A stretch of 64,000 bases of DNA from Candidatus Methanomethylophilaceae archaeon. Lineage in GTDB: Archaea; Thermoplasmatota; Thermoplasmata; Methanomassiliicoccales; Methanomethylophilaceae. Position 1 is the first letter of the stretch; each line of letters opens with the position of its first letter. Under the pieces are notes generated by a model. The model was not told the origin of the DNA. It saw only the letters and a program-made list of their open reading frames with translations, and did not search any database. The translations under genes and the position numbers were made by a program. Below are positions 35 to 46,117 of this stretch, one piece after another. Where the stretch lies: positions 363 through 64,362 of the forward strand of contig JAFYAH010000051.1 in the NCBI GenBank assembly GCA_017540825.1, in the 5' to 3' direction.

Positions 35-643
35 TCATCGGTCTGGCTCCCAGATGCAGTAGAGAACGGCGTCATTGTTGATTTTATAATCCTGTCCGTT
101 GAGATATGTCGGCGCCGTGGCATACGGATCGGCGGAGAATCCTGCTATGTGGCATCCGTTCTTATAGAAACCATACGTGTTCAGGGTGTCATGGCCGCCT
201 TGAGCGAAACGCTTCGTACAGTACGGCATGTACTCGATTATGTGGTCGTCGGCATCATAGTTGCCGTCGTCGCCGTTTCCGTAGATGGTCAGGGAGCAGG
301 GATTGGCCTTTATGTCCTGGATGATGGACACGGACATCGGCGCCGAGTATTCCCAATGGCTGCCTATGACGATTCCGAGGAAATAATCGTTGACTTTCTT
401 CTTGAACACGGCGGTGAAATCGTCATTGTTCAGCAACGTTCCGGTTTTGAATTCTCCATTGTCGCAATCCACGAAGGCGGCGAAGCCAGGCTCGACCGTG
501 CGCGTCTCGCTGGAGCTGTCGTTACTGTAATGGAATGCCTGGTTGAAGAGGCCGATGTTCCTGTTAGAATGGTCAGAGACGCTTATGTCGTGAAGAGCAT
601 TTGAACCTGTACCGGCAGAGGTGTAGTCATAAAGACACCTGTA
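35..643 (-). CDS. C-terminal continuation of the 644..1360 reading frame (hypothetical secreted/surface protein). Track ORF 35..472 merely starts at an internal GTG.
   Basis: All 57 codons between TAG 644..646 and GTG 472 are open in the same frame. No ATG or TATA lies in between. Ends TGA 35..37. The tail ...TYGFYKNGCHIAGFSADPYATAPTYLNGQDYKINNDAVLYCIW resembles Listeria-Bacteroides (InlB-B type) repeats. Confidence 0.45.
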   Translation of the reverse strand, partial: YRCLYDYTSAGTGSNALHDISVSDHSNRNIGLFNQAFHYSNDSSSETRTVEPGFAAFVDCDNGEFKTGTLLNNDDFTAVFKKKVNDYFLGIVIGSHWEYSAPMSVSIIQDIKANPCSLTIYGNGDDGNYDADDHIIEYMPYCTKRFAQGGHDTLNTYGFYKNGCHIAGFSADPYATAPTYLNGQDYKINNDAVLYCIWEPDR

Positions 644-1360
644 CTATGTGCTTCCTAGATTGACGAGCTGGCCATTCACATCCAACGTGTGTATGTTGCG
701 TCCGGTAGCTGGAACGGTTTCGACAGAAAACTGCGAAGAATAGCAATTGTAGGTGCAATCGTCTTCATCGACGTAATAGTTAGCACCATATACGTTGAAA
801 CTACCCCATTCTCCACAGTCCACGTTCCGATACACGAAAGAGTCGTATTCCCAGTCTCCGGTGAAAATCTTGTCCGTTCTGGGAGGGACGATGTCGTGGG
901 AGACCCATCTGTTCATAGACAGGACGGATTTCTCCCTGCTGTCATTGTTGTCCTCGTAGCTGTAGGATGTGCGGGCGGAGGGATCGTATCTGAAGGCATA
1001 CGTCTTCCCTTCGGCTGAGAAGCAGGTGGAGTAGTCTTTGAGGTAGCTGGTCAGGCCGTAGTCGTTGAAGACTGCTATCGCCCCGATGCTCACACACGAG
1101 ATCAGGGCTTCTCTCACATCCTCATGGTCATTCTCTCTGATCCATTCGTTTCCAAACACCACGGCATATGCGTTTTCTATAGAGGAACGTTCGATTTCTT
1201 TCAAATCTCCGGTTCTCAGATCCAAAGACAACAGCTGATTGTCCAACCAATCATCGTGGGTTTCGCAGATAGGGTCGCTGTTCGTGGTCGGCTGGTCGAG
1301 GACCGCCATCGCTACGATGGATATAGCAACCACCATTATGCCGGCAATCCATATTTTCAT
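644..1360 (-). CDS. Hypothetical secreted or membrane-anchored protein, N-terminal segment ending at an in-frame TAG.
   Basis: N-terminal hydrophobic signal/anchor MKIWIAGIMVVAISIVAMAV. AT-rich TATA-like sequence upstream of ATG 1360. The stop is TAG 644..646 and the frame continues open. Confidence 0.6.
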   Translation of the reverse strand: MKIWIAGIMVVAISIVAMAVLDQPTTNSDPICETHDDWLDNQLLSLDLRTGDLKEIERSSIENAYAVVFGNEWIRENDHEDVREALISCVSIGAIAVFNDYGLTSYLKDYSTCFSAEGKTYAFRYDPSARTSYSYEDNNDSREKSVLSMNRWVSHDIVPPRTDKIFTGDWEYDSFVYRNVDCGEWGSFNVYGANYYVDEDDCTYNCYSSQFSVETVPATGRNIHTLDVNGQLVNLGST

Positions 1361-1650
1361 GATTGTAACATTGTTAATTATATACTTAATCCTATTTTTT
1401 TTTATTCTAAAATGGGAATCTTTGCAAATATACAGAACATAAACTTGATACCTCTAAATTACTCGACTACGTCGCGCTTGATCGAGCGCTTGCGAGCAGA
1501 TGATCCCCATGATGTTCTTGCCGCGGCCCTCGATCGTCAAGACTCAGAAACCGGCGGACAGGATTCCATTTATAGTGTTACTTTATTTATTTAATATATA
1601 ATATTACGAAATATTATTAAAATATTCATAATATAATGAAATATAGATAT

Positions 1651-1677
1651 AAAAATGGCGAGAGGGAGGGCCCTCCC
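1651..1677 (-). terminator. Hairpin plus T-run downstream of gyrA.
   Basis: Perfect palindrome GGGAGGGCCCTCCC (1664..1677) lies 7 nt after the gyrA stop. It is followed on the minus strand by CGCCATTTTTAT. Confidence 0.4.
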
Positions 1678-1684
1678 GCATGTT

Positions 1685-4228
1685 TCATTCGGACCCTTCC
1701 TTCTCGGGCTCGGAACCCTCTTCCGGCTCCTCCGCCCCGACCTCCGAGAAGGCTTCGGTTATGGCCTCCACCTCGTCGTCAGAGGGCTCCGCCATTATGG
1801 GCTGCACGGCCACCACCTTGTCGTCGTCCCTCATGTCCATGAGCTTGACCCCCTGGGCGTTGCGCCCGGTCTCGCGGATGGCGTCGGTCTCTATGCGCAG
1901 GACCTTCCCGGACATCGAGGTGAGCATCAGATGGTCCCCGGGGGCCACCTTCCTGACGCTGAGGACGTTCCCGTTGCGCTCGTTGCAGATGATGGTTATC
2001 ACCCCCTGCCCGCCGCGGTGGTGCTTGGAGTAGGCCTCCACGTCGGTTATCTTGCCGAACCCGTTCTCGGTGACCGTCAGGAGCTTGTCGCCGGACCTCA
2101 CGATGGCCATGGAGACCACCTCGTCGTCCTCCGTGAGCCTCATCCCGATCACCCCGGAGGCGGTCCTCCCCATGGGGCGGGCCTCCTCCTCGGAGAACCT
2201 GATGGCCTTCCCGCGCTTGGACGCCATTATCACGTCGTCCCCGGCGCTCGCGATGTCGGCCTCGATCAGCTCGTCGTCCTCCACGTCGGGGTTCTCGTCG
2301 GTCCTGAGGACGATCGCCTTGATCCCCTTGGAACGGACGTTGCCGTAGGCGGACATGGCGGTCTTCTTGACGCGCCCCTTCTTCGTGCAGAACACGATGA
2401 ACTTGTCGTCGGGGAAGTCGGGCGTGCACACGGTGTTAACCACGCGCTCGTCCTCCTCGAGGTCGGGCAGGAGGTTCACGATAGGCTTGCCCTTGGACTG
2501 CCTGCTGCCCTCCGGGATCCTGTATCCCTTGAGCCAGTGGATGCGGCCCTTGTTGGTTATGAACAGGACGTAGTCGTGGGAGCAGGTCACGAACATGGAG
2601 TCGACATGGTCCTCCTCCTTCGTCTGCATCCCTGTCAGGCCCACGCCGCCGCGCCCCTGCTGCCTGTAGGTGCTCAGCGGGATCCTCTTGATGTAGCTGT
2701 CGCGGGAGAGGGTGATCACCACGCGCTGCTTGGGGATCAGGTCCTCCTCGTCGCTGTCCAGCGGGTTGGGGTCGATGACGGTGCGGCGCTCGTCGCCGTA
2801 GGCGTCCTTCATCTCCTTCAGCTCGGACTGGATGATCGCGTTGATCCTGGACTCGTTGGCGAGGATGTCCCTGAGGTCGGCCATCGTGATCTCCAGCGCC
2901 TTGTACTCGTCGCGGATGGAGTCCAGCTCGAGGCCGGTCAGCTTCTGGAGCCTCATGTCGAGGATGGCCTTGGCCTGCTCCTCGTCGATGCCCAGGAGGC
3001 CCCTCAAGCCCTCGTTCGCCTCCTCCACGCTCGCGGACTCGCGGATGAGCCTTATGGTCTCGTCGAGCATGCCTATGGCCTTCATCAGGCCCTCCAGGAT
3101 GTGGAACCTCTTCTGCGCCTGGGCGAGGTCGTACTCGGTCCTGCGGTAGACCACGGACCTCCTGTGCGCTATGTACTGCAGGATGAGCTCCTTCAGGGAC
3201 AGGACGGACGGCCTGTTGTCGACCAGGGCTATGTTGATGATGCCGTAGGTGACCTCCATGTTGGTCTTCTTGAACAGGTTCTCCAGGACCACGGCGGAGA
3301 GGGCGTCCTTGTGCAGCTCGATCACTATGCGCATCCCGTGCCTGTCGGACTCGTCCCTGAGGTCGGTTATCCCCTCGATCTCCTTGTTCTTGACGCGGTC
3401 GGCGATCTGCTCGATGAGCATGGCCTTGTTGACCTGGTAGGGGATCTCGTCCACGATGATGCGGTCCTTGCCGTTGCCCATCTCCTCGATGTGCGTGTTG
3501 GCCCTGACCTTCAGCCTCCCGCGCCCCGTCTCGTAGGCGGAGCGGATGCCGCCGATGCCGTAGATCGTCCCCCCGGTGGGGAAGTCGGGCCCCTTGATGT
3601 ACGCCATGAGGTCGTCCAGCATGGCGTCGGGGTGGTCTATCACGTACGATATGGCGTCGCAGACCTCCCCGAGGTTGTGCGGAGGCATCTTCGTGGCCAT
3701 GCCGACGGCTATCCCGTCGGACCCGTTCACCAGGAGGTTAGGGAACTTGGAAGGCAGGACGGAGGGCTCCTTGAGCGACCCGTCGTAGTTGTCCACCATG
3801 TCCACGGTGTTCTTGTCTATGTCCGCCAGCAGGTCGCTGGCCATCTTGGACATCCTGGCCTCGGTGTAACGCATGGCGGCGGCGCCGTCCCCGTCCACCG
3901 AGCCGAAGTTCCCCTGCCCGTCCACGAGAGGGTACCTGAGCGAGAACGGCTGGGCCATCCTTACCATGGCGTCGTACGCCGCGGTGTCCCCGTGCGGGTG
4001 GTACTTACCCAGGACCTCTCCCACCACGGTGGCGGACTTCTTGTGCGGGCGGTTGTACGTGAGGCTGAGGTTGTCCATGGCGTACAGGATCTTCCTGTGC
4101 ACCGGCTTCAGGCCGTCGCGGACGTCCGGGAGGGCGCGGCCGACAATGACGCTCATGGAATAGTCGATGTAGGAGCGCTGCATCTCCTTCTCAACCGACT
4201 GGATGATGATCTTCTTCTCTCCTTCCAA
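1685..4228 (-). CDS. gyrA: DNA gyrase subunit A.
   Basis: 847 aa. N-terminus [43 protein letters not shown] and [10 protein letters not shown] are classic GyrA. TTG start at 4228 is required to keep the conserved N-terminus. It lies 4 nt after the gyrB stop. Confidence 0.97.
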
Positions 4229-8633: not shown

Positions 8634-9996
8634 ATGCAGTTCATGGACGTCGAGAGCATCGACACGGAATGGGAGGGGAACTGAAGCCCGAAGAACCTCG
8701 AGACGATAGCGGCGTTCTACAACACCGAAGGCGGACGCATGGCGATAGGCCGCAGAGACGACGGCCCGTTCATCGGCGTGGACGATGTGAAGGGGACCAT
8801 GAAGGAGATCTCGGACACCATCCGCAACAAGCTCCACATCGCATGCAGGATTCGCGCAGAGCTCGAAGGCTAGATCTGCTACATCACCATCGATGTCCCC
8901 TCGGAAACAGCATGGCCGCATTAGACGGCAGACTCTTTGTCCGCTCAGGGAACGCTACACAGGAGATCGAAGGGGACATCTCAAAAAGGCCATTCTGTCA
9001 GAGCAAGGGCTCCAGTGGCTCGACCAGACCGTGGACATACCGGTCGAAAGCCTGTCCAGAGATGCCATAGGCTATTTCATAGAGACAGGGGAGAAGGCTG
9101 GCAGGATACCGGAAGGCATCGACGGGTCCGACGTGCCTGCCATCTTGTCGAGATACCGCATCTTGAAGAACGGACGCCCGACGATGGCCGCAGTTCTCCC
9201 ATTCCATGAAGATCCATACAGCTTCAACTACGGCGCGATGGTGAAGATAGGCAGGTTCGATAGCGAACGCACGCTCCTCAGGGACGATATGGTCAGCGGC
9301 CCGATGATTGAGGTTCCCGAGAAGGCCATGCGTCTGCTGTACAGCAATTATATACCGCCGACCTACGGATATGGCGGCCTCACCGTGTCCGGGCACATGG
9401 ATTACGACTATCCTGAGAAAGCCGTCAGAGAGCTGATCGTGAATTCCGTGGTCCATATGGACTACTCCCTGCAGCAGCCGGTCGAGATCTCGGCGTTCGA
9501 CGACCGTATGGAGATGTTCTCTGCTGGAGGGCTGCCGAAAGGCCTGGCCATACCCGATCTGAAGAAACGGCACAGGTCCATCCGGCGCAACGAGACCTTG
9601 GCATCGGTGTTCTATTCCGCAGGGTATGTCGAGAACTGGGCGCAGGGCATAGCGAAAGTGATGAAAGAATGCGCCGAGAACGGCAACCCTGAGCCTGAGT
9701 TCTCGCTCGAGCTCGGCGGACTTATGGCAACCATGTACAAACGCTCACGGAACCCTGGAAGCACGATCCCCGAGCATAGCAGAAGCAGAGGCCTGGAAAC
9801 GACTCTAGACCAGCGCATCTTGGAAGCCATGTCCGGATCTGCGACGATGAGCACGAAAAGACTATCTGAAAAGCTGGGAGTCCCGTCAAGGACCATTCGG
9901 AGGCACCTTGCCCATCTTGTAGAGGCCGGCCAGATCGTCAGGGTGGGGAGCAACAGCAGCACAGAGTACGCCATAAAAGACGAACTGACCGTTTGA
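8634..9996 (+). pseudogene. Disrupted AlbA_2 (Schlafen-type) plus HATPase_c_4 putative DNA-binding/transcriptional regulator gene.
   Basis: The N-terminal AlbA_2 signature (ESIDTEWEG..NLETIAAFYNTEGGRMAIGRRDDGPFIGVDD) is broken by in-frame TGA 8682..8684 and TAG 8871..8873. Homology then jumps frame twice (AALDGRLFVRSGNATQEIEGD, then ILSEQGLQWLDQTVD...). The C-terminal 8893..9996 ORF carries the HATPase_c_4-like and wHTH part. Confidence 0.75.
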
Positions 9997-10137
9997 AAGC
10001 CCGGCCATAATGGGTGGCCGTTGAACCATCCGAGAATGAGTCGTGAACCGGTATGCCCCGCTGTGACAAACGATTCATAAGGATGCGGGCTTCACGGATG
10101 CCTGCATGCATTCCCGAGACCAAGCCTCTCGGAGCCT

Positions 10138-10440
10138 TCAGAGACGACCGACGGCCCTTCTCACCTCTTCGATATAGTCCTCGATAACCTCTCCGCCGTC
10201 CAGGATGACGTCTCCCACTACATCCAGCGCGACGGAATTGACAGCCTTCTCGAGCCTGAAGTCTGGCTTGGAACCTTCGAGGCATCTCTGGATGTATTCG
10301 ATCTCGGCCGCCTCCAAGGCCTCCGCCAGATGCTCCCAGCCCCTCTCGCGGCTTCTGCTCCCTGACTCTTCTGGCTCGGGTTCCAAAACTGCCTGCGACT
10401 CCTCGACGCTCATCATGGACGTCACCGAGCCGAGGTCCTC
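10138..10440 (-). CDS. TerB-C-like domain; in-frame continuation of 10441..12174 across TAG.
   Basis: Same frame as the upstream ORF, with only TAG 10441..10443 between them. Acidic linker, then ...EKAVNSVALDVVGDVILDGGEVIEDYIEEV resembles the TerB-C terminus. The track M is a GTG. Confidence 0.5.
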   Translation of the reverse strand, partial: EDLGSVTSMMSVEESQAVLEPEPEESGSRSRERGWEHLAEALEAAEIEYIQRCLEGSKPDFRLEKAVNSVALDVVGDVILDGGEVIEDYIEEVRRAVGRL

Positions 10441-12174
10441 CTACGCCTTTGAAACGGCGGCCATGTCGAGCTCCAGGGGCGTTTCCGGCTCGTCTCTCTG
10501 CGGCTCGTTGAGGCGGTCTATAGCCTCGTTCACGAGAGGGGTCACGTTAACTCCGAAGCACATCACCGGGTTCCGTCTGCGCCTTCCGTTGTCGGCGCGC
10601 ATATGCACAGAGCTCACGACGAAATCCATGAGAGACAACAGCTCCCTCGAGAAAGAGCCGTCTATGCGGTTCAATGACGGCATCCGGAATGTCGCCCTGC
10701 CCACGCTGAACATGCGCGGATGCACATCCTCTGTGGCTAACATCCCGTATCCCTTCAACCATCCAGCGCCTGATTCGCATTTGGACGTCAGAATCTTCGA
10801 GAACACCCTCTTGAACACAGTCCAGCACTCCTCGTACGACCCCGCAGGCGGCGAGACCTTGAGGAAGCGCCAGAAATACTCCGCTGGCAGCGGCTGCCTC
10901 TGCCCGTCTATGGCCCTTCTCAGCACAAAGCATGAAAGATCGCTATCGCTGGCAGCGACTTCGGAGGCTATTGGGATGCGCCCGACTGTTGAGGCCTCCG
11001 CCATCAGCATCGACAGGAATTCGTTCCTGTATTCAGAGCCTAGGCCGTGTACATCCGTCAGGAACGACATGATCTCCGAGAAGGCCGCGCCCTCCTTGAC
11101 CATCTCCATGCACCTAACGAGCAGGCAGCCGACGTCGAAGTCGTAAAACTTTCCTTCGAGGAGACGGTCCCTCCAGAACAAGTAGTAGTCTTTTCCGATG
11201 ATGCCCTCCGGAGTCAGGTCCACGACCTCCCAGAACACCCCTCTGTCCGACCTGGAAGCGGACACCCACTCCAGGTCGCGGATGACCGCTTCGGCTGTTG
11301 GCGACCCGTCGCATACGCCAATTATAGCCCTGCTGTCCCTGTAGAACGATGGCCGAGCCGGCGCTGGATATATCTCGATCTCCCCGTCGTCGAAGGAGAG
11401 GATTCTAAGGCCTCCAACGACGTCCTCCCTTATGTTTTCGTAACGCAATGTATCGTCTTCCATCGCCCGCTCCAGCCGATAGCAGAGATCCGGATATTCC
11501 GAGCCAGCCCCATAGCCGTCGCATACGCCTAAGACTTCGAAAAATAACTTGCTGAAGCCTTTCCAGTCCGGAGAGCGATAGCAGACGATGCGGCGAGGCT
11601 GCTCCTTAGCCGGGAGCAAGTCGAACAGGTTCAAGGATACGCTGGCCTCGTCGCGGGCGAAATGCTGCCCTATGCTCTCGCCGAACTTCTCCATGAAGTA
11701 CTGGTCGGCGATCTTGAAGGCGTGGTTCAGCCTCATGGAATTCACGGCCATGAACGAGTAGTACCCCCTCAGGCCCCTTGATAGGCAGAGATAGTCCGAT
11801 TCCAAGGAGGGGGAGAAGCGAGGCAGGAACATCTTCGTGAACACGGGCCCCATATCGATAGAATCGTAGCCACTGCTGACGAAGCTGCCACAGTAGACGG
11901 ACAGATCCCGTATGTAATCCCTGGCGTGTTCCGCAAAATTGCCGTTTCTGCTGCGGAAAAGGTACCTGTACAGCTTCTTGCGCCCCTCGTCAGTAGTAAG
12001 GCATTCCATTACCAGGAGATTGAAGTATCCCCAGTCCCCCTTTATCCTCCCCTTGTCGAGGATGGTTCTGAAATACGCATAGTAGCGCTTCTGTTCGTTC
12101 CGCATCCTGTCGCAATTAGACGGAACTTGCATTAGCTCCACATACGGGCACTTGGACGAATCCATCTCGTCCAT
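10441..12174 (-). CDS. TerB-N domain-containing protein (two TerB-N-like repeats), ending at an in-frame TAG.
   Basis: NEQKRYYAYFRTILDKGRIKGDWGYFNLLVMECL and KDYYLFWRDRLLEGKFYDFDVGCLLVRCMEMV match the TerB-N Y-x-WR...G...Y-hydrophobic-E pattern. The ORF ends ...PLELDMAAVSKA-TAG, exactly where TerB-C normally begins. Confidence 0.55.
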   Translation of the reverse strand: MDEMDSSKCPYVELMQVPSNCDRMRNEQKRYYAYFRTILDKGRIKGDWGYFNLLVMECLTTDEGRKKLYRYLFRSRNGNFAEHARDYIRDLSVYCGSFVSSGYDSIDMGPVFTKMFLPRFSPSLESDYLCLSRGLRGYYSFMAVNSMRLNHAFKIADQYFMEKFGESIGQHFARDEASVSLNLFDLLPAKEQPRRIVCYRSPDWKGFSKLFFEVLGVCDGYGAGSEYPDLCYRLERAMEDDTLRYENIREDVVGGLRILSFDDGEIEIYPAPARPSFYRDSRAIIGVCDGSPTAEAVIRDLEWVSASRSDRGVFWEVVDLTPEGIIGKDYYLFWRDRLLEGKFYDFDVGCLLVRCMEMVKEGAAFSEIMSFLTDVHGLGSEYRNEFLSMLMAEASTVGRIPIASEVAASDSDLSCFVLRRAIDGQRQPLPAEYFWRFLKVSPPAGSYEECWTVFKRVFSKILTSKCESGAGWLKGYGMLATEDVHPRMFSVGRATFRMPSLNRIDGSFSRELLSLMDFVVSSVHMRADNGRRRRNPVMCFGVNVTPLVNEAIDRLNEPQRDEPETPLELDMAAVSKA

Positions 12175-12369
12175 TTTGCGTATGAAGTCCAGCCTCTACT
12201 CCAACGGCATGACAATGGTGCCAATCGGACGAATCGCCCCGTACATGGACGAGTGATGCGGTAGCCATGAATAACAGTTGCCGTCTGAGATAGACTGCAG
12301 GAGATGTCGCAGAAAGGCCTGAAGTCGGCAGAAAGCTCTCGAGCCGCGCTGGGAGAGGCAGTATGATGA

Positions 12370-12444
12370 TGGAGCCACTGGAGGGGATCGAACCCCCGGC
12401 CTGCGGTTTACGAAACCGCCGCTATACCCCTAAGCCACAGTGGC
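12370..12444 (-). tRNA. tRNA-Thr (anticodon CGU), with encoded CCA.
   Basis: Folded by hand: GCCACTG/CAGTGGC acceptor, anticodon stem GCGGT/ACCGC with loop TTCGTAA, T arm GGGGG-TTCGATC-CCCTC, discriminator T plus CCA. 75 nt. Confidence 0.9.
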
Positions 12445-13956
12445 ACGCATAGGTGGAGCGAACCATGGTATAAAAACATGGCCCATGCTCCCTCTCTGAC
12501 CATCGAACGAACCGGCATCCTGACACCGCCGTCGCAGACGTGTGCGTCGTTCGGGAGTCTCGTGCTGAGCCGCCCTCCGCTTCAGGAACGACGGCTTGTC
12601 CTCGAACGAATCCATGAAAGCGGCGGCGAACAGCGGCATGTGGACGACCCCGCCCGCATCCACGAATATGTTGCCGTCCTCTAGCTTCACCCTGTGGGCC
12701 ACGTCGAAAACCTCGCCCACCTTGGATAGCGACGGAGAGTCCCGCTTTTTTCCCGATTTCACCTCTATGGCGGTCGCTCCGCTCGGCATCTCCACGACGA
12801 AATCTATCTCCATGCGCCCGTTGCCGTTGCTCTTCTGATAGTAGAACGTGTCGAAGCCGCTCTTGACCAGCCCCTCTGCGACAGCGTTCTCTGCAAGAGC
12901 CCCGAGATTATACGAATAATCCGCGGAATGGATCGCTATGACGGCCCCCTCGCCGTACATACGCGCGAGAAGCCCCGTGTCCGACATGTAGACCTTGAAC
13001 ACGTCGGGCTTCTTCTGACCGGCGAGGGGCAGGCTTATCTGCGAGATCCCATGGACGAAGTTGCCGTATCCTGCGTTCTTTATCCACAGGAGGTTCCCCC
13101 CGTACACATCGGCCGACTTGCGGGATCCCGCCCTGTCCTTGCCGACCTCCGAATAATGGAAGCGCTTATTGGTCTTGGACAGCTGCCCTGGGATGGATTC
13201 GAAGCACTCCATCGTCTTGACTGCGTCCATGCCGGAATTGTACCTGTTGATGTCCTGCCCCACCAGGGCCAGGATCCCTTCTTGGACTGCCATAGCTCCG
13301 TAATACGTCTCGCGGTTCTCGTTGAAGGCCTCCACCGCCGCAGGCATGCCTCCTATGATCATATATTTGCGGAACAGTGCGGCGAACCTTCCTAGGATCG
13401 CGTCCGGGACTGGAGAACGGAATCTTATGCATCTGCGGACCTCTGCGACGGAGTCCGGAGGAACCCCTTGAGACCAAAGGAACTCCTCGAAATCCAAGGA
13501 GCGCATGATGTACGGCTCCACGTATCCCATGGGAGAGAGCATGCCTTTCCTTTCCATAGAGCCTGTTCCGCTGATCTTGACGCCGAGCATCGAGCCGGAA
13601 GCGATGACCTTGAACCTCCCGTCCAGAGCAAAGAGCTTCAGAGCAGAGAAGGCCGCCTCGCAATCCTGTATCTCGTCGAAAAAGAACAGCGTATCCGACA
13701 GATCTCCGGATCCGAGAGAGCGCAGAGTGCGAATTGACAGCATTATCCCGTCTATCGAAAGGCTACGGCCCTCGAACACCGACCGGAACTCCGCGTCCTT
13801 GCTGAGATCTGCATACACATATCCGGAGTAGTTCTCCTTCGCGAAGCTCTCTATTATGAAGGTCTTCCCTGTCTGCCTCTGACCGTACACCAGAAGGGGC
13901 TTCCTGCCGTTCTCCTTCCAGTCCATCAGCCTGGCGTATGCCTTCCTTTGCAGCAT
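12430..13956 (-). CDS. AAA family ATPase (AAA_14 plus DUF4143 type).
   Basis: Walker A YGQRQTGKTF, Walker B LFFFDEIQD, and a DUF4143-like C-terminal half. An unusual tail of about 55 aa ends at a TAG that lies inside the tRNA-Thr gene. Confidence 0.8.
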   Translation of the reverse strand: MLQRKAYARLMDWKENGRKPLLVYGQRQTGKTFIIESFAKENYSGYVYADLSKDAEFRSVFEGRSLSIDGIMLSIRTLRSLGSGDLSDTLFFFDEIQDCEAAFSALKLFALDGRFKVIASGSMLGVKISGTGSMERKGMLSPMGYVEPYIMRSLDFEEFLWSQGVPPDSVAEVRRCIRFRSPVPDAILGRFAALFRKYMIIGGMPAAVEAFNENRETYYGAMAVQEGILALVGQDINRYNSGMDAVKTMECFESIPGQLSKTNKRFHYSEVGKDRAGSRKSADVYGGNLLWIKNAGYGNFVHGISQISLPLAGQKKPDVFKVYMSDTGLLARMYGEGAVIAIHSADYSYNLGALAENAVAEGLVKSGFDTFYYQKSNGNGRMEIDFVVEMPSGATAIEVKSGKKRDSPSLSKVGEVFDVAHRVKLEDGNIFVDAGGVVHMPLFAAAFMDSFEDKPSFLKRRAAQHETPERRTRLRRRCQDAGSFDGQRGSMGHVFIPWFAPPMRATVA

Positions 13957-14005
13957 TGCTCCTGCAAAGGGTTCATGGATATTAATCCTGCTTCAAAATA
14001 CCGGA

Positions 14006-14069
14006 CGGTTTTCTGCATCTTGGCTCAATTTACCGGGCGGTTTTCTGCATCTTGGCTCAATTTACCGGG
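14006..14069. repeat. Perfect 32-bp tandem direct repeat, two copies.
   Basis: CGGTTTTCTGCATCTTGGCTCAATTTACCGGG occurs at 14006..14037 and 14038..14069, with a partial copy end (TACCGGA) just upstream. It lies 50-115 nt upstream of the AAA ATPase start. Confidence 0.9.
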
Positions 14070-14146
14070 TCGATATGTATACGAACCAATCTAGGACATA
14101 CGACGTCCGTTTTCCCGCCGCGCCTGTTGTCAGGACGGAGCCGGGT

Positions 14147-14959
14147 TCATGGCCGGCGGAACGCGGGGAACATGTCCCTGAACACCACGGCGTCCTGCTC
14201 TATCAGCGGCGACTCGCAGATGAACGTGCACTCCTGCCTCGAATCCTCCAGGACGTCCGCCAGCATCTGCATGTCGGGGTCCCTGGCCTCCAGCGGCAGA
14301 TGGGATATCTCGCCCTTGTCGCCGTACTTGATGCAGCTTATGTGGAAGTGCGCTATGTCGCCGCAGAGCGGGAAGAACTCGTCTATGAGCGCCTGCATGT
14401 CCTCCCTGGTCTTCAGGCGGCCGCGGCCCCTCGCATGGACGTGCGCTACGTCGAGCACCGGACGGACGCCGTCCACGCTGTCCATGACCTTCCCGATCTC
14501 GTCCAGCGTGCCGAACTGGCCGATCTTCCCCATAGTCTCCACCCCGAGGACGACGTCCTTTATCCCCTCGTCGTCCAATATGTCCTTGCACTTGGAGAGC
14601 CCGCTTATCACCAGCGGGAGCGCGGTCTCGGGCGACTTGCCGTAGGATGCGGCGTGTATGACGATTATATAAGCCCCGAGGTTGTGCGCGGCCCTGGCGG
14701 TGCTGGTCACCCACTCGATGCTCTTCTCCCTGGTCTCCGGGTTGTCGGAGTTGAAGCTGATGAAATAAGGCGCATGGCAGCTGAGCCTGATGTCCAGCTC
14801 CTTGGCCTTCGCGCCGATCTCCTGCGCCCTCTCGGGGCTTATGCGCGCCCCGCGGACGAACTCCACTTCCAGGGCGTCCAGCCCCAGATTCCTAGTATAT
14901 TCCAGAGCGCCTTCCGGCTTCTTCCCTGCCGAAGGGTATCCTGCGGGACCGAACCTCAT
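14147..14959 (-). CDS. Endonuclease IV-like AP endonuclease (xylose isomerase-like TIM barrel).
   Basis: 270 aa. LSCHAPYFISFNS, IIVIHAASY, LGVETMG, LDVAHVHARG and AHFHIS match the metal-ligand blocks of Nfo-family enzymes. Confidence 0.7.
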   Translation of the reverse strand: MRFGPAGYPSAGKKPEGALEYTRNLGLDALEVEFVRGARISPERAQEIGAKAKELDIRLSCHAPYFISFNSDNPETREKSIEWVTSTARAAHNLGAYIIVIHAASYGKSPETALPLVISGLSKCKDILDDEGIKDVVLGVETMGKIGQFGTLDEIGKVMDSVDGVRPVLDVAHVHARGRGRLKTREDMQALIDEFFPLCGDIAHFHISCIKYGDKGEISHLPLEARDPDMQMLADVLEDSRQECTFICESPLIEQDAVVFRDMFPAFRRP

Positions 14960-15001
14960 GCTGCGCCCGATGCCGTAGGAATATAAAAGAGACTGCGGAC
15001 A

Positions 15002-15031
15002 CGGCCGCCCCGGGCAGAAAGAAGGGGCGGC
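15002..15031 (-). terminator. GC hairpin after the ABC operon.
   Basis: GGCCGCCCC-N12-GGGGCGGCC, a perfect 9-bp stem 10 nt after the permease stop. The minus strand then runs into CTCTTTTATATTCC, which doubles as the TATA box of the next gene. Confidence 0.45.
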
Positions 15032-15041
15032 CGGCCCATCA

Positions 15042-15653
15042 TCAGAAGTCCCTGGTCCTCACGGTCCTCAGCGTGAGGATATACAGCAGCGCGGTCACGG
15101 CCAGAAATGCGACGCACACAGCAGCCGTCGCCGCGATGCTGTCGGAGAAGATCCCGAGGATCCTCTGCATGCCGAACAGCATCACCGTCACTATGAATCC
15201 CAGGATCAGGATCACGACGAATATGGCCACTCCCTTGAACCGGTACCCGATGTACAGGGCGGCAGAGGACAGCATCAGCCCCAGGCATACCGACAGCACG
15301 ATCGTCAGCAGGGCGTCGTCGATGCTGAATTCGCATCCTGTGATCAGGACGATCAGCATCGCGCCCAGGAACGCGACCGCCTGGCATACGGACATGGTCA
15401 CCAGCGTGAGCATGAACTTCGCATCGACCATGGTCTTGCGCGGTATCCCCGAGGACACGGCGAACCTTGACCACCCGGACTTGTCGTCCATGTCGACGGA
15501 CGAGGCGGGCAGGGCCGCCCCCATGAACGCTGCGAACATGAACGGCAGATAGGGCCCGGACTGCATTATAACCGAGTAGATCAAGATGGACAGCGGCAGG
15601 GCGACGAACATTATCGTGTTGCTCGCGATCTCCTTCTTGAGCAGCCTGTTCAT
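15042..15653 (-). CDS. ABC-2 type transporter permease.
   Basis: 203 aa from MNRLLKKEIASNTIMFVALPL, with about 6 hydrophobic helices. ATGA overlap with the upstream ATPase gene. The track ORF 15042..16475 is an out-of-frame 5' extension. Confidence 0.75.
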   Translation of the reverse strand: MNRLLKKEIASNTIMFVALPLSILIYSVIMQSGPYLPFMFAAFMGAALPASSVDMDDKSGWSRFAVSSGIPRKTMVDAKFMLTLVTMSVCQAVAFLGAMLIVLITGCEFSIDDALLTIVLSVCLGLMLSSAALYIGYRFKGVAIFVVILILGFIVTVMLFGMQRILGIFSDSIAATAAVCVAFLAVTALLYILTLRTVRTRDF

Positions 15654-17025: not shown

Positions 17026-17820
17026 ATGAAGGTGGAACTCGACGTACAGCTCGACCCTACCCTCGGCTGCGGCCAGGCCCACAGATGGAGAAAGAAGGGG
17101 GACGGGTCCTGGGAGGGCGTCCTGGGAAACAGCATAGTGGTCCTGAGGCAGGAGGAGAGCGGCATGTCGGTCGAAGGGTGCTCCGAGCGGCGCATCCTAG
17201 ACTACATGAGGGCGGACGACGACGTCGATCGCATCCTCGCGGACATCTCCAGGCGCGAGCCATACGTCGCCGACCTAATTGCGCGCTGTCCGGGCATGCG
17301 CATACTGAGGCAGGACCGCTGGGAGTGCCTGGCCACCTATCTTCTCGCTACCAACGCCAACGTCGCCCGCATAGGGAAGATGGTAGAGTCCGTGTGCGCC
17401 GAGTTCGGGACCGACCTCGGAGGAAGGTCCTCGTTCCCTACTCCGAAGCAGATCCTCGACGGGAGGGACAGGGCCTGCGTGTGCAGGCTCGGGTTCAGGG
17501 AGCCCAGGCTCATCGAGCTGGCGAAACGCGTAGAGAGCGGGGACATAGACCCGGACGCCATCGCGGAGCTAAGCTACGAGGACTGCTGCGAAGCCCTCAT
17601 CGGAATAAACGGAGTCGGCCCTAAGGTCGCCGACTGCGTAGCCCTGTTCGCATACGGACATCTCGAAGCCTTCCCCATAGACGCCCGCATCTCCAAGGTG
17701 ATGGAGATAAGATACGGCGTAACGGGCAGCTACAGGAAGGTCGCCGACGAAGGCAGAAGGATCTTCGGCCCCTATGCTGGATACGCCCAGGAGTTCCTGT
17801 ACCACAGCCAGTTCATCTGA
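17026..17820 (+). CDS. 8-oxoguanine DNA glycosylase/AP lyase (OGG1-type HhH-GPD).
   Basis: INGVGPKVADCVALFAYGHLEAFPIDARI carries the OGG1 catalytic Lys and Asp context. N-terminal LGCGQAHRW is also present. Confidence 0.75.
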   Translation: MKVELDVQLDPTLGCGQAHRWRKKGDGSWEGVLGNSIVVLRQEESGMSVEGCSERRILDYMRADDDVDRILADISRREPYVADLIARCPGMRILRQDRWECLATYLLATNANVARIGKMVESVCAEFGTDLGGRSSFPTPKQILDGRDRACVCRLGFREPRLIELAKRVESGDIDPDAIAELSYEDCCEALIGINGVGPKVADCVALFAYGHLEAFPIDARISKVMEIRYGVTGSYRKVADEGRRIFGPYAGYAQEFLYHSQFI

Positions 17821-18230
17821 CTCAGAAAAGGATATTGCAAGCATCGGCCGGTCTTCACCGGGTTGCAGGAGCATCTGGGCGACGGCTGCCCGGTCTGGGA
17901 CTCGTAGGCCTTGTCCAGGAGCCCCGACCTCTTGAACACGCCGCAGAGCCTGCACATCTCCAGGGAGAAGTCGGCGTCCTCCTCGGCGATCCTGCGCGCG
18001 GACTCCCTCAGCTCGTCCATGAACATCCTGTAGTCGGGGTCGCCCTCGTCCATGTCCGGCCTCCCGCCCCTCTTCCTCTTCATGTACTGGGAGACCGCGG
18101 CGTCGGTGACGTCGAACCTGCGCGCGACCTCGGCCTGGGACATGCCGTGGACGTTGACGAGCTCGGCCGCCATCTCGCGGCGTATCATGGGGAGGACGTA
18201 CCAGACGATGAGCTCGCAGGGGACTTTCAT
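17772..18230 (-). CDS. Predicted HTH transcriptional regulator (COG2522-like).
   Basis: MKVPCELIVWYVLPMIRREMAAELVNVHGMSQAEVARRFDVTDAAVSQYMKRKRGG, plus Cys pairs downstream. Ends at TAG 17772..17774, 49 nt inside the convergent ogg gene. Confidence 0.5.
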   Translation of the reverse strand: MKVPCELIVWYVLPMIRREMAAELVNVHGMSQAEVARRFDVTDAAVSQYMKRKRGGRPDMDEGDPDYRMFMDELRESARRIAEEDADFSLEMCRLCGVFKRSGLLDKAYESQTGQPSPRCSCNPVKTGRCLQYPFLSQMNWLWYRNSWAYPA

Positions 18231-18263
18231 GCCGACACGACCTTGATGCACCTATTAATGCCT

Positions 18264-27085: not shown

Positions 27086-28794
27086 TCATGATGCGAGACC
27101 GGACCTGGTGAACCCCTTGGGCGTGACCACCGAGACCCTCTTCCCCCTTATCCCCACGGCCACCCAGACGACCTTCCCGTCGAGCGGCTTCGATGCGTAT
27201 CCCTTCTCCTCGATCTGGGCCTGGGCGGCGTCGGCGGAGATCTCCGGTATCGCCTTGGACGAGGTCTTTATCTCCATGGCCAGGGCGGGCGCCCCGCCGC
27301 TGCCGGGGACGAACACGTCGCACCTGCCGAACCCCTTGGGGGCCTCCTCGGAGGCCGCCATGCCTGCGGCCCTCATCGCCGACGAGATCGCGTTCTTGTA
27401 CCTGTCGTGGGCCTCCCTGCCGTCGCCGGCCCACCCGGAGTCCATGGATATGCCGCCGAGGACGAACTGGATGTCGTCGCGTATCGCCGCCGGGTCCCCC
27501 GAGAGGAAGTGCCCCCTCATGTCCCTGCGCAGCTCCCTCGCGCGACTGGTCGCCCTGCCCACCAGGGACTCGAAGGCGGGGGATATCTCGCGGTTCACCA
27601 TGCCGACGTCGTAGAGCTCGTCCTCCGCCGCCGTCATGAGGCCCGTGGGGTCGGCCCTCACGTACCCGCACATCGCAAGGTACGAGTAGACCAGGGCCGG
27701 GTCCGCGTCCTCCTCCAGCAGGTCGGGGAACCACAGGAACTCCCTCAGCGGGCAGCGGACCTTTGACGAGGGGTCCTCGTAGAGGCCCTTCAGCTCCTGC
27801 AGGGCGATGCCGTCCAGCCTGCCGATGAGGTCGGCGGACATGCCGGCCCCCGTGGAGCCGTCCCAGTACTTCCTCGCGGCGCGGCCTCCCTTGAGGTACT
27901 TCACCACGCTGTATGGGTTGTACACCTCCTTTCCCCCGAACCTGTAGCCGTCGTACCAGTCGCGTATCTCCTCCATCACCCCGGGGAGGTCGTTCCCGGT
28001 CTCCGCGAGCAGCCGCTCCACCTCCCCCGCGGTGAACCCGAAGTGCTCGTCCCCCTCGTGGCTGAAAATGTCGCAGACGACAGGGTTGTTGAAGCTCTGA
28101 GCATCCCCGCCTTGGCGAGGGGCATTATGCCGGTGACCACCCCCGTGCGCATGTGAGTATTGGTCTTGAACGTCTGCTCCATGAACGGCCTTATGCTATT
28201 GACTATGCCGTCATACAGATCCTGGTCAGACAGACCCTGGACACAGCGATCGTATTCGTCCACGAACAGCATGACCTTCCTACCATACGCATTGTCTAGG
28301 ATTTCGCACATATCCGCAACAGCGCAGTTCAAAGCCATCCCTTTCAGACCTCCGTCTGCGCATTTTCTCAGCCTGCGAGCATCGTCTTCGTTGAGTGCAT
28401 CAGGCGATATGGCCCTCCGTACCCTTGTAGCGATCAAAGACACCAGGTCCGATAGGCTCTCGCGAAACTCATCAACAGAGAATGAGGAAAGCCTGCTGAA
28501 GTCCATCCTTATCACAGGGTAGGCGTTCCTGTGCTCCGCGCATTCAGGGCATTCTTTCGTTATGCGCCTCCCCGCGAACATGTCGGGAGAGCCCCTGTAG
28601 TCTATGTTGAAGAAGTAGTCGAGCATGGACAGGTTCACGCTCTTCCCGAACCTGCGCGGGCGGGTGTAGAGGATGACCTTGTCCTCCGCCTCGCAGACGT
28701 CACGGATCATCATGGTCTTGTCCACGAAGCAGTACCCCTTGGTGACCATCTCCCCGTAGTCCTTCACCCCGTCCGGGTACTTCACCGCCGCCAT
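27086..28794 (-). pseudogene. DUF1703 family (AAA-ATPase_like plus PDDEXK_9) gene with a single frameshift.
   Basis: ORFs 27976..28794 and 27086..28021 are the two halves. Shifting one nucleotide near 28096..28100 restores ...GIMPLAKAGML-SFNNPVVCDIFSHEGDEHFGFTAGEVERLLAETGNDLPGVMEEIRDWYDGYRF, colinear with the intact paralog at 44471..46117. Confidence 0.8.
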
Positions 28795-29144
28795 GCCCGA
28801 ATACTCCCCGTGTAAGCGTATAAATGTTCCGCGTGCGCGTCGTCAGCGCCTTTCGTAGCGTGGGCGCGCTGTTTTTAGCGATGCGTTTCGAGCGAAGAAC
28901 GGTGCCCAGGATTGCCCAGGCCTTTCGCCAGACGGCGAGGGAGATGCACCCTTCGTCCGGCGCGGTCGCCGGAATGTCCGAATGAGCGCGCTAGCAGGCA
29001 TAGAGCCCCGTTCCGTCGACCGCCTCCCGCCACAAAGAATAGAGACCGGCCTTCCGCTCCAGACCCTGCACCGGGTGGCAAAGGGGCCCGGCCTAAGCCG
29101 ATGCCGCGTCCTCGGACGCCTGCGACGTATCCTGGCGCGGATGG

Positions 29145-32792: not shown

Positions 32793-32909
32793 ATGCCACT
32801 CATTAGTTCCATGTGATATAAAAGAACGGAGGCGTGCACGCACGGGTCTGCCTCCATGACGGCGACCGTCCGGGAAAGTTTTATCTCACGATACGTCCAA
32901 CGCCGTGGC

Positions 32910-33182
32910 ATGAAGGAATGCATGGACTCGGAGAACCTCCACAGGCGGCTCAAGAAGATATCGGGGCAGGTCGCGGCCGTGGACCGCATGATAGACGAGG
33001 ACGTCCCCTGCGAGGACATACTGATACAGGTCAATGCGATAAAGAGCGCCCTGCACAGCGTCGGGCAGATCATACTCGAGGGGCACATCAAGCACTGCGT
33101 GCGGAACGGGATAGAGCACGGGGACGCGGACAGGACCATAGAGGAGTTCGCGGCAGTGGTGAAGCAGTTCTCCAAGCTCTGA
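32910..33182 (+). CDS. CsoR/RcnR (DUF156) family metal-sensing repressor.
   Basis: LHRRLKKISGQVAAVDRMIDEDVPCEDILIQVNAIKSALHSVGQIILEGHIKHC carries the x-C-H-C ligand fingerprint. TTTTATCT box 31 nt upstream of ATG 32910. Confidence 0.85.
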   Translation: MKECMDSENLHRRLKKISGQVAAVDRMIDEDVPCEDILIQVNAIKSALHSVGQIILEGHIKHCVRNGIEHGDADRTIEEFAAVVKQFSKL

Positions 33183-33227
33183 TACCCCCATAGGGTACTT
33201 TATATACTCAATACCCCTATTGGGTAT
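33182..33227. promoter_or_regulatory. Two CsoR-type operators flanking the ATPase TATA box.
   Basis: ATACCC-CCATA-GGGTAC (33182..33198) and ATACCC-CTATT-GGGTAT (33211..33227), with TTTATATA (33199..33206) between them. Confidence 0.6.
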
Positions 33228-34607
33228 TTGGCGATAATATTGACCGTTATAGAAGTTATCAGGAAGAACAAAATCCAGATTGGAATGATAATTGCGTCAA
33301 TAGCACTGGTTATCACCGCAATTTTATTTCCATCCTTCAATTACATAGCCCTTATACCCGTCATGGTATGTGGGGCGCCCATACTCGTGGACGTCCTGGT
33401 GGACGTGGAAGACGGGAGGGTGTCTGCCGAGACGCTAGTCATATCAGCTATATTCGGATGCGTCATTCTCAGCGAGTACGTCGCGGCTGCGGAGATCGCA
33501 GTGATAATGTACATCGGCGCGCTCCTGGAGAAGTCCGTGACGGAATACGCCCAGATGGGCATGGACGCGCTGAGGAACCTCAAAGTAGACAGCGTCAGCC
33601 TGCTGGACGGGGGCGCGGTGAAGCAGGTCCGCACGGAGCGCGTAGGGATCGGGAGCGTGGTGCGCGTGTTCCCGGGCGGCATAGTCCCGCTGGACGGCAC
33701 CATAGTCTCCGGGTCTTCGTCGATCGACAGGTCGGCTGTGACCGGGGAATCCGTCCCTGTCGACGTGCGCGAGGGCGACGCCGTCCTCGCCGGGACCAGC
33801 AACCTCAACGGGTCCATCGACGTGAGGGTGGACCGCGTCGAGTCGGAGAGCTACGTCAGCCGCATGGCGGAGCTGCTCGAGAAGGCGGCCGCCGGGAAGA
33901 GCAGGATGGCGTCCATGGCCGACAGGGCGTCCAAATACGTCCTCTTCGGAGCCGCGGCCATCGCGATAGCGACGTTCGTGCTCACCGGCGACGTGTACCG
34001 CGCCCTGACCGTGATGGTGGTGTTCTGCCCCTGCGCGTTCGTCCTTGCGACGCCCACCGGGATCATGGCGATGGCCGGCAACATGGCCAGGCACGGCATA
34101 CTCCTGAGGGACGCGTCCGCGATGGAGGGCATGGCAAAGGCCAAGGCGGTGCTCTTCGACAAGACCGGCACCCTCACGGAAGGGAGGATGACCTCCCTGG
34201 GGTTCACCGGCACGGACGACGTCGACGAGAGAGAGGTGGAGGGGATGGTGTCCGCCCTGGAGTCCCGCTCCGACCACCCTCTTGGGAAGGCCCTGTCGGC
34301 CAGCGCCCCGAAGGGTGCTGTGGAAGGGTTCGAGAACATCCCCGGACAGGGCGTCGTCGGGACGGTCGACGGCGTCCGCATGGCTGTGGGGAACCGCAGC
34401 CTGATGGAACGCCTCTGCCCGGAAGGCCTGGAAGCCGCGTCCGAGGCCGCGAGCAGATCCTCTGCGGTCACCGTCCTCGTAGGGATGGACGGCAGGACCG
34501 TGGGGTTCATGAGCCTTGCGGACAGCGTTAAGAAGGGCTCCGCCGAGGCCGTGTCCGATCTGAAGGACTCCGGAGTGACCACCGTGATGCTCACTGGGGA
34601 CTCCTAG
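33228..34607 (+). CDS. Heavy-metal P1B-type ATPase, N-terminal 459 codons up to an in-frame TAG.
   Basis: TGES actuator motif, CPC in the TM helix (VVFCPCAFVLATP), phosphorylation site DKTGTLT, and MLTGDS. No N-terminal HMA domain. The start may be TTG 33228 (leaderless) or ATG 33285. Confidence 0.85.
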   Translation: MAIILTVIEVIRKNKIQIGMIIASIALVITAILFPSFNYIALIPVMVCGAPILVDVLVDVEDGRVSAETLVISAIFGCVILSEYVAAAEIAVIMYIGALLEKSVTEYAQMGMDALRNLKVDSVSLLDGGAVKQVRTERVGIGSVVRVFPGGIVPLDGTIVSGSSSIDRSAVTGESVPVDVREGDAVLAGTSNLNGSIDVRVDRVESESYVSRMAELLEKAAAGKSRMASMADRASKYVLFGAAAIAIATFVLTGDVYRALTVMVVFCPCAFVLATPTGIMAMAGNMARHGILLRDASAMEGMAKAKAVLFDKTGTLTEGRMTSLGFTGTDDVDEREVEGMVSALESRSDHPLGKALSASAPKGAVEGFENIPGQGVVGTVDGVRMAVGNRSLMERLCPEGLEAASEAASRSSAVTVLVGMDGRTVGFMSLADSVKKGSAEAVSDLKDSGVTTVMLTGDS

Positions 34608-35093
34608 AGGGCTGCGACAGAGGTGCGCGATAGCCTGGGCCTCGACGACCTCGTGTGGGAGTGCACCCCCGAGGCCAAGATGAGGACGGTGGAGCACTTC
34701 GAGTCCGAAGGCCCGGCCTGCATGGTGGGTGACGGCATCAACGACGCACCCGCCCTGCGGAGGGCCTCCGTGGGGATATCGATGGGGTCCATAGGAAACG
34801 ACCTCGCCGTCACGTCCTCCGACGTCGTGTTCCTGAACGACGACGTTGGGAAGCTCCCTGGGCTGCTCAGGCTCAGCAGGCGCTCCGTCAAGACGATAGC
34901 GGCGGGCCTCGCCATGTCGATGTGCGTGAACATCGCAGGCACCGCCCTGGCGATGGGAGGGCTGATAGGGCCCGCGGCCGGAGCGCTGATCCATAACGGG
35001 GGGTCCCTCGCGGTCGTCCTGCTGACGGCGTCCCTGCTGTGGAGCCCGGACCTGACCCGCTCGCCAAACCATATCTACCCGGATCCGGAATAA
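34608..35093 (+). CDS. Same P1B-type ATPase, C-terminal part following the in-frame TAG.
   Basis: Same frame. Reads RAATEVRDSLGLDDLVWECTPEAK, the hinge VGDGINDAPAL, then the final two TM helices with HNGGS. Ends TAA 35091..35093. Confidence 0.8.
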   Translation, partial: RAATEVRDSLGLDDLVWECTPEAKMRTVEHFESEGPACMVGDGINDAPALRRASVGISMGSIGNDLAVTSSDVVFLNDDVGKLPGLLRLSRRSVKTIAAGLAMSMCVNIAGTALAMGGLIGPAAGALIHNGGSLAVVLLTASLLWSPDLTRSPNHIYPDPE

Positions 35094-44470: not shown

Positions 44471-46117
44471 ATGAAAGGGCTGCCGATCGGAAACGACGAC
44501 TTCAAGTATCTTCGCGACAACGACGGGTACTACGTCGACAAGACGGAGCTCGTGAAAGAGATTCTCGACAACAGGAACACCAAAGCGTTCCTCTTCACCC
44601 GGCCTCGCAGATTCGGCAAATCGTTGAACATGAGCATGATAGACGCCTTCTTTAACATCCAATACAAAGGCAACGGATGGTTCGAAGGACTCAAGGTAAC
44701 GACACACAGCGACTGCATGTCCGAAATGAACGAGAGCCCGGTGATGTTCATATCACTGAAAGGCTTAGAAGCCGAATCGTTCGAAAGATTCGAAAGACTG
44801 CTGAAGAACCGTCTGAAGAAGCTGTACGGAAAGTTCGAATTCCTCAAGGATTCCAACAAGCTGTCCGACCGGAACAGGAGCAATTACCTGGATGTCGCCT
44901 ACGAGGACTTCAGGACGGTGGATCCTACTGAAGCCCTGATGAACCTCAGCGACATGCTCTGCGAACACTACGGCAAAAGGTGCATAATAATAGTCGACGA
45001 ATACGACAACGCCATCCAGAACTCCTACGGCATGCCATTTCAGAGACAGGTTCTGGGAACGATAAGAGGGCTCCTGACCAACGCGCTCAAAAGCAACGAA
45101 TCGCTGAGATTCGGGATCGTCACCGGCGTCATGCAGATCGCAAAGGAATCCGTCTTCTCCGGACTGAACAACCTTTATGTGAACAGCATATTCAGCTCCG
45201 GATTCAACGAGGAGTTCGGATTCACCGAGTCGGAGACCAGGGATATGCTGGAATACTACGGCCACCCCGAGAAATACGACGAGGTCAAGGACTGGTACGA
45301 CGGCTACAGGTTCGGAGACGCCGAAGTGTACAACCCCTGGAGTCTCGTAAGCTATATAGCCGAAGGGTTCGTCCCACGGAAATACTGGGCCGGGACCAGC
45401 GGAAACGAAGTGCTCACGACGCTCGTAGACTCGGCCGACGACTCCGTATGGTCCGACCTGGAATCCCTCGCCAAAGGACATGCGGTGAGGAAGAGCCTCG
45501 ACCAGTCCGTCGTATACTCAGATATTGGAAGGAAAAGCAGCGCCATCTACTCGATCCTTGCAATGTGCGGCTATCTGAACGCCAGAAAAGCCGAAGACTC
45601 ATACGATCTGAGCATTCCCAACAGCGAGATGTACCAGGTGTACAGCGAGGTCCTGCTCCAATGCGCTGGCAGCAGCGAGATTGCAAGCAGGATACGCGGC
45701 CTCTTCAAAGCCATGAGGTCATGCGATACAGCCTCAATGGAAGATGCCCTGCGCGACCTCATGAGGGAGACCGTGTCCGCCAAGATCTTCGATTCAGAGC
45801 ACGTCTACCAAGCGTACCTGATAGGGATGACCATGGGGTTCTGCGGGAACTACGAGATCTACGGAGACCGCCTGGAGTCGGGAGACGGGTTCGCCGACAT
45901 AATATTCAAGAGAACCAGCGGCCCCGGCGTCAACATAGTGGTCGAGCTCAAAAGAAGCAGGAAAGAATCCGATCTGAAATCCGACGCCGAGAAAGCGATG
46001 GCGCAAATCCATGAAAAGGACTACGCGCATGGCCTCAAGGGCAGGACCATCCTGTACGGGACGAGCTTCTATAGCAAGAGCCTGTTAATAATAGCTGAAG
46101 AAACGTTCGGCCATTGA
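44471..46117 (+). CDS. DUF1703 family protein (AAA-ATPase_like N-terminus plus PD-(D/E)XK PDDEXK_9 C-terminus), intact.
   Basis: GNDDFKYLRDNDGYYVDKTELV, FTRPRRFGKSLN, WYDGYRF, and a C-terminal GFADIIF...VELK nuclease core. Confidence 0.8.
   Translation: MKGLPIGNDDFKYLRDNDGYYVDKTELVKEILDNRNTKAFLFTRPRRFGKSLNMSMIDAFFNIQYKGNGWFEGLKVTTHSDCMSEMNESPVMFISLKGLEAESFERFERLLKNRLKKLYGKFEFLKDSNKLSDRNRSNYLDVAYEDFRTVDPTEALMNLSDMLCEHYGKRCIIIVDEYDNAIQNSYGMPFQRQVLGTIRGLLTNALKSNESLRFGIVTGVMQIAKESVFSGLNNLYVNSIFSSGFNEEFGFTESETRDMLEYYGHPEKYDEVKDWYDGYRFGDAEVYNPWSLVSYIAEGFVPRKYWAGTSGNEVLTTLVDSADDSVWSDLESLAKGHAVRKSLDQSVVYSDIGRKSSAIYSILAMCGYLNARKAEDSYDLSIPNSEMYQVYSEVLLQCAGSSEIASRIRGLFKAMRSCDTASMEDALRDLMRETVSAKIFDSEHVYQAYLIGMTMGFCGNYEIYGDRLESGDGFADIIFKRTSGPGVNIVVELKRSRKESDLKSDAEKAMAQIHEKDYAHGLKGRTILYGTSFYSKSLLIIAEETFGH

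Follow-up and report, generated by a model that had tools for sequence, protein, structure and literature searches.

A TAG codon inside a heavy-metal P1B ATPase gene of a Methanomethylophilaceae archaeon, probably decoded at least partly as pyrrolysine

Ordinary genes with internal TAG codons have been described from the methanogen lineage that includes the Methanomethylophilaceae, and proteomics has confirmed that these codons are read there as pyrrolysine (Pyl) (Borrel et al. 2014, PMC4153887; Kivenson et al. 2024, bioRxiv 10.1101/2024.09.30.615893; Shalvarjian et al. 2025, PMC12626013). Sixteen non-methyltransferase Pyl proteins were predicted for 'Ca. Methanomethylophilus alvus', and were read by the authors as stable mutations in a background in which tRNA-Pyl suppresses them (PMC4153887, Table 7). 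Kivenson et al. formalised such genes as Category 1, under Genetic Code 34. Of 15 expressed M. alvi proteins, 12 were found to contain Pyl, with no other amino acid at TAG, and the 1903 Pyl proteins they predicted are mostly singletons (10.1101/2024.09.30.615893). In Methanosarcina acetivorans, UAG acts as stop and as Pyl and yields short and long products without a cis element; the PYLIS element is not required for Pyl insertion, and some genomes of Methanomethylophilaceae are Pyl-plus, others Pyl-minus (PMC12626013).

The stretch of DNA analysed here (64 kb, called the window below) has a GC content of about 60% and encodes MCM, Orc1/Cdc6, gyrase and an A1A0 ATPase operon. All of its close homologs and syntenic relatives belong to MAGs of the Methanomethylophilaceae/Methanomassiliicoccales, most of them from the gut of ruminants. 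A 621-codon frame for a P1B-type ATPase (33228..35093) is broken at one point only, by the TAG at codon 460. The upstream ORF (33228..34607) starts with TTG and gives 459 aa; past the TAG, 161 further sense codons run in the same frame to a TAA, with no second stop or frameshift among them. The upstream part holds six of the eight predicted transmembrane helices, four before the A domain and two after it, the last with the CPC motif (VFCPCAF). It also covers the A domain (AVTGESVP), the phosphorylation motif (LFDKTGTLT), the N domain with its HP motif, and the P domain as far as MLTGDS. The rest of the P domain, with GDGINDAP, and the last two hydrophobic, predicted transmembrane helices follow the TAG, and TGD and GDGxNDxP thus lie on opposite sides of it. 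The original prediction had described two ORFs in one frame, parted by a TAG alone, with TGES, CPC and DKTGT upstream and the hinge motif and last two helices downstream; the reading of the frame and translation, and an alignment with CopA, bore out all of this.

When the TAG is given as X, the NCBIfam heavy-metal P-type ATPase model TIGR01525 matches the 621-aa product at 481 bits (cutoff 346) in a single stretch, residues 68-599, that crosses the TAG. The product aligns from end to end with CopA (3RFU and 3J08), sCoaT (7QBZ) and ZntA (4UMV), with which it shares the full motif set and from which it differs in having no N-terminal metal-binding domain. Judged by its motifs and by a profile score above the curated cutoff, the predicted product is a P1B-type heavy-metal ATPase. 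As with other P1B heavy-metal ATPases, a metal-sensor gene lies upstream of the pump; an EamA transporter gene lies directly downstream. Gene callers start the CsoR/RicR-type repressor at 32910, giving 90 aa, and make the same 90-aa call in all related contigs. RicR is its top NCBIfam match, though under cutoff, and a C52-H77-C81 pattern can be read from its sequence. Metal cues across 32856..35093 conflict: the repressor carries the Cu(I)-type C-H-C pattern of CsoR, whereas the pump passes the Cd-type model TIGR01512 (397 bits, cutoff 313.5) and falls under the cutoff of the Cu-type model. The transmembrane signature is itself mixed, combining CPC with an HNGGS helix reminiscent of Co/Cd-type (P1B-4) pumps.

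Table 1. Features of the ATPase locus and of other TAG-containing genes in the window
Feature	Position	Strand	Remarks
CsoR/RicR-type metal-sensing repressor	32856..33182	+	Pfam PF02583, 93.8 bits; directly upstream of the ATPase
P1B ATPase, codons 1-459	33228..34604	+	Identical to cluster P0002
In-frame TAG, codon 460	34605..34607	+	2 residues past the TGD motif; proposed pyrrolysine codon
P1B ATPase, codons 461-621 and TAA stop (35091-35093)	34608..35093	+	Coding score +43.5
Second gene with a single internal TAG (644-646)	35..1360	-	Secreted or anchored protein, 238 + 202 codons
Possible third case, ORFan	10138..12195	-	TAG 10441-10443, then 100 in-frame codons of coding-like composition
HTH gene ending in TAG	17772..18251 (to 17730 with second TAG)	-	Second in-frame TAG 13 codons on, before any TGA or TAA

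The ATPase gene resembles the Category 1 genes of Kivenson et al. in several respects. [quoted passage not shown] It is a one-species singleton, has no PYLIS element, and comes from the Methanomethylophilus/Methanogranum/Methanoplasma group. It likewise resembles the M. alvus cases of Borrel et al., which come from the same archaeal family and are TAG-split coding sequences whose two parts match one protein, with homologs in relatives that lack the TAG; the species here is a different one, uncultured and GC-richer. Thg1 and RdmS of Methanosarcina acetivorans, as they are cited in PMC12626013, also carry Pyl at a non-conserved position with no known catalytic role, and in both systems long and short forms are expected, UAG being ambiguous; those two proteins were verified by experiment in cultured Methanosarcina, whereas the ATPase case is drawn from metagenome assemblies. 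The gene therefore belongs to a known kind of case. What differs is the protein: a P1B ATPase is not named as a Pyl protein in the Borrel, Shalvarjian or (main text) Kivenson texts, and the Borrel list (DGGGP synthase, MtxX, Cas1, Fic, a transporter family protein) contains no metal ATPase.

The original prediction had pointed to the residue that orthologs carry in the TAG column. Across 119 homologs this column is hypervariable, with R, H, E, G, A, S, Q, K, P and others. Legionella CopA has Lys there (3RFU, MLTGDSKRTAEAV) and Archaeoglobus CopA has Trp (3J08). The closest TAG-free ortholog (P0001, on contig L010; 81% amino acid identity) has GAA, for Glu, and other close relatives have Glu or Gly. 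Read from this alignment, the ancestral state is Glu or Gly, and a large lysine derivative at codon 460 should be harmless. The origin of the TAG is readily explained, because one G-to-T change from GAG or GAA suffices. The L010 ortholog (790..2994) is unusual in its own right: its usual stop is missing and about 110 extra residues bring it to 734 aa, and a leucyl-tRNA synthetase gene follows it in place of the window's EamA gene.

We consider it probable that a near-neutral change from Glu to UAG took place and that the UAG is decoded at least partly as pyrrolysine. The gene would encode a CsoR-linked heavy-metal P1B pump of a ruminant-gut Methanomethylophilaceae archaeon, in which a single G-to-T change would have created the UAG from a Glu codon (GAG or GAA), at a site that is hypervariable and faces the solvent, just past the TGD motif. 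In this lineage, Pyl-tRNA(CUA) would compete with release factor at the UAG. Some fraction of translation events would then place pyrrolysine at codon 460 and give the full-length 621-aa pump, while the others would give a useless 459-aa fragment. Being near neutral, the change would have been tolerated and would have spread through the sampled population. The step from TAG to Pyl is one that we infer: the change is most likely decoded because the lineage is known to read internal TAG as pyrrolysine. If Pyl is read, the junction would be ...MLTGDS-O-RAATEVR..., giving a junction peptide ...DSGVTTVMLTGDS-O-R. The Pyl residue has a mass of 237.15 Da.

The original prediction had left a choice between a very recent nonsense mutation, pyrrolysine and other read-through. 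Pyrrolysine is now favoured by the taxon, the variable column, the lack of downstream decay, a second internal-TAG gene and the pylTSBCD genes of a related isolate; a recent null allele keeps a real, if minor, chance. Under that alternative, a plain nonsense mutation struck a dispensable metal exporter, any Pyl read-through is incidental, and decay lies ahead. The TAG is indeed confined to one near-clonal, species-level population (99.8-100% identity, 0-3 SNPs per gene) in which it is fixed among the samples. The nearest TAG-free ortholog is just 81% identical, and no full-length allele at more than 81% identity occurs among 5.8 billion proteins. TAG is also the most accessible nonsense codon, making up 65% of the nonsense mutational target at this codon usage, and the Pyl status of the genome is read by analogy from relatives. 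Gene decay does occur in the region, which counts against the decoding view: on the minus strand at 27086..28842, AAA-ATPase_like and PDDEXK_9 domains lie in two overlapping frames with G-runs near the frame switch (~28000-28060), which suggests that this is a copy, disrupted by a frameshift, of the 548-aa paralog that lies intact at 44471..46117 (+).

Against a dead gene stands, first, the state of the downstream half, where 161 codons carry no second lesion. Relative to the 81% ortholog, dN/dS is 0.167 upstream of the TAG and 0.156 downstream. Since the two halves are equally constrained, there is no sign of decay; the equality implies only that any inactivation is recent relative to a dS of about 0.5-0.8, and is to that extent compatible with a young null allele. 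Neither of the usual marks of a pseudogene, added lesions or relaxed downstream constraint, was found in the ATPase, though both have low power for a very recent event. SNPs in the population number five non-synonymous and two synonymous in the ATPase, no different from four and none in the neighbouring essential MCM gene, and so give no evidence of selection on the TAG allele, with too few SNPs for any power. Second, nearly any residue is tolerated at the TAG position. Third, translation of such codons is established for the lineage (PMC4153887; 10.1101/2024.09.30.615893).

Fourth, the allele is present in every sampled assembly. All nine contigs from nine ENA samples have the TAG and read TCC TAG AGG, and one more metagenome contig, found by a pattern search that left the codon free, has it too (10/10 in total). 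These contigs come from different samples, several studies and different assemblers (MEGAHIT k141 contigs, SPIRE scaffolds, a GenBank metagenome). NCBI, ENA and Logan assemblies contain the exact 459-aa product (P0002), which has entries in 32 index blocks. The GenBank version of the ATPase is truncated at 414 aa, and an exact look-up of this version gave no record. Contig L009 departs fully from the others from ATPase codon 592 to the end of the contig, across roughly the last 30 codons of the gene, and has several stops there; the likely cause is a rearrangement in that sample or chimerism at the contig end.

Finally, a second intact gene in the window, at 35..1360, is interrupted by a TAG alone. 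Full-length homologs (P0332 at 478 aa, P0334, P0329, P0330 and P0327) span its TAG and have T, K or R in that column, and single-chain homologs measure 466-479 aa. Some 30 aa present in every homolog are missing from the product (alignment A1, columns 302-334). The window contains no TGA- or TAA-interrupted genes. We dropped the argument that only TAG interrupts genes, because with TAG at 65% of the nonsense target TAG-only interruptions are not significant by themselves. A decoded codon remains our preferred explanation of the ATPase TAG; most likely this is a further case of a phenomenon already described, and the TAG reflects neither gene death nor an error.

How completely UAG would be decoded is suggested by the other TAGs of the window. 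Among its ~40 gene-like ORFs, the ATPase apart, the stop is TGA in 31, TAA in 5 and TAG in 3. The median TAG share in Pyl-minus archaea is 22% (PMC12626013); at that share, three TAG stops in ~40 have P = 0.014. TAG stops are depleted in the window relative to such genomes. TAG must still terminate at least the HTH gene, since reading all TAGs as sense would carry the frame through 429 codons antisense to its neighbours; read-through is therefore partial at best. The tandem TAG of this gene may be a backup terminator in a UAG-leaky host, and the gene is Category 2 only if the backup TAG terminates, otherwise Category 4-like. The TAG genes of the window include two of Category 1 (the ATPase and 35..1360) and two of Category 3, a sample far too small for the recoded-genome test. 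Complete reassignment explains the window less well than ambiguous UAG decoding or a transitional genome does. In a fully recoded genome (Group C), Category 1 would hold most TAG genes, and few if any would overlap others extensively out of frame when read through. TAG still seems to end some genes here, and the organism looks more like the transitional Group B of Kivenson et al., or the ambiguous decoding of Shalvarjian et al., than like full recoding.

The possible third case lies in a region of its own. A homology search with the ORFan (10141..12174) returned only a self-match, and the gene would be Category 3 in the Kivenson scheme. On the minus strand at 10138..13992, three ORFs share one reading frame and are parted only by TAGs (12430, 12196 and 10441): an AAA+/DUF4143 gene, a 77-codon stretch crossing tRNA-Thr, and the 577-aa ORFan with its 100 further codons. 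TAG as sense would fuse them into a chain that continues for 763 codons past the first TAG. The surrounding interval (~8800..14000), beside tRNA-Thr at 12370..12444, holds accessory-type genes (HATPase_c_4/HTH, the ORFan, AAA+/DUF4143) and looks like a strain-variable island next to the tRNA gene. The exact ORFan product is known from one other contig only (16.8 kb, NCBI), and an 89-kb ENA contig of the same species stops near window position 12393, inside tRNA-Thr. About 550 nt past the right end of the window, contig L021 carries an SLFN_AlbA_2/HATPase_c_4 gene (14035..15513, minus strand) that also ends in TAG. Counting the island genes as well, most of the TAG-terminated genes seen are accessory or defence-type.

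A stronger reading than tolerance is that the UAG is used. Because the balance between Pyl-tRNA supply and demand governs read-through, output of the complete exporter could be coupled to methylamine growth and to the state of the Pyl system; alternatively Pyl, whose bulky and reactive side chain would lie by the TGD phosphate-binding loop, could tune the dephosphorylation step of the pump. We regard a used UAG as very unlikely.

Another alternative supposes that the organism has no Pyl system and that near-cognate suppression of UAG by Gln, Tyr, Lys or Glu yields a trickle of full pump. In its favour, pyl genes, tRNA-Pyl and methylamine methyltransferase genes are all absent from the 64-kb window, and some Methanomethylophilaceae are Pyl-minus (PMC12626013). 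The exact AtpA of the window is present in GCA_017508945.1 and GCA_964297955.1. A search with DP1, a peptide from just outside the window, gave only related species, at no more than 89% identity, among the best 80 of 323 matches; the closest of these 80 is the isolate SIG7 (89% identical in DP1 at the amino acid level, and 90.7% identical in nucleotides along 7.2 kb of the A-ATPase operon). SIG7 carries tRNA-Pyl(CUA), pylS, pylB, pylC and pylD, all above curated cutoffs. An ORF pair adjoining its pyl genes would be a split mtmB by analogy with contigs L029 and L129, where PF05369 MtmB pairs lie upstream of pylS; the SIG7 ORFs have no family match of their own. By analogy with SIG7, we strongly infer that the organism of the window has pylTSBCD.

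Four PylS candidates chosen by prevalence or composition (P0220, P0282, P0232 and P0275) were all in other samples or assemblies, and the signal of tetranucleotide distance was too weak to bin them with the window. The accession neighbours of MBR6205159.1 linked no PylS to the window: few accessions were given, and none of them lies in the MBR62 range. A peptide from the 514-aa hypothetical protein of the window had no match in genome contigs, where the window is perhaps masked. The two internal TAGs have no stable, PYLIS-like RNA structure 3' of them (z = -0.21 and -0.37), and thus no stimulatory structure that near-cognate suppression might have used. With a full cassette in the closest of the listed relatives, depleted TAG stops in the window, and only Pyl at TAG positions in M. 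alvi (10.1101/2024.09.30.615893), we hold read-through by an ordinary amino acid to be highly improbable.

A split gene is hardly plausible. Here translation would terminate at the TAG and restart at GTG 34623, and chains of 459 and 156 aa would assemble into a working pump. A 156-aa ORF from this GTG is called in every contig, and AGAGG stands about 11 nt upstream of it, but the P domain would be cut in two, with TGD on one chain and GDGxNDxP on the other, all 119 homologs are single chains across this point, and the ORF call reflects leftover coding signal. We know of no natural split P-type ATPase, and of none split inside the P domain. As for a sequencing or assembly artefact, which the original prediction had named as one way in which it might fail, nothing was found in its favour, and it is refuted by the identical TAG of ten independent contigs from various samples, studies and assemblers.

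The main value of this case lies in a warning for annotation and in a site at which read-through can be tested; it opens no new question. With standard gene callers the pump comes out as two products, a 459-aa 'ATPase' and a 156-aa hypothetical protein, and the gene at 35..1360 is split likewise. TAG splits in Methanomassiliicoccales MAGs should be read as candidate pyrrolysine proteins and not as pseudogenes. Codon 460, which corresponds to a Lys in a solved CopA structure, would be a natural test site for UAG read-through in an uncultured rumen methanogen. If decoded as we propose, the pump would place a membrane transporter among the predicted singleton Pyl proteins that Pyl-decoding methanogens acquire by drift.
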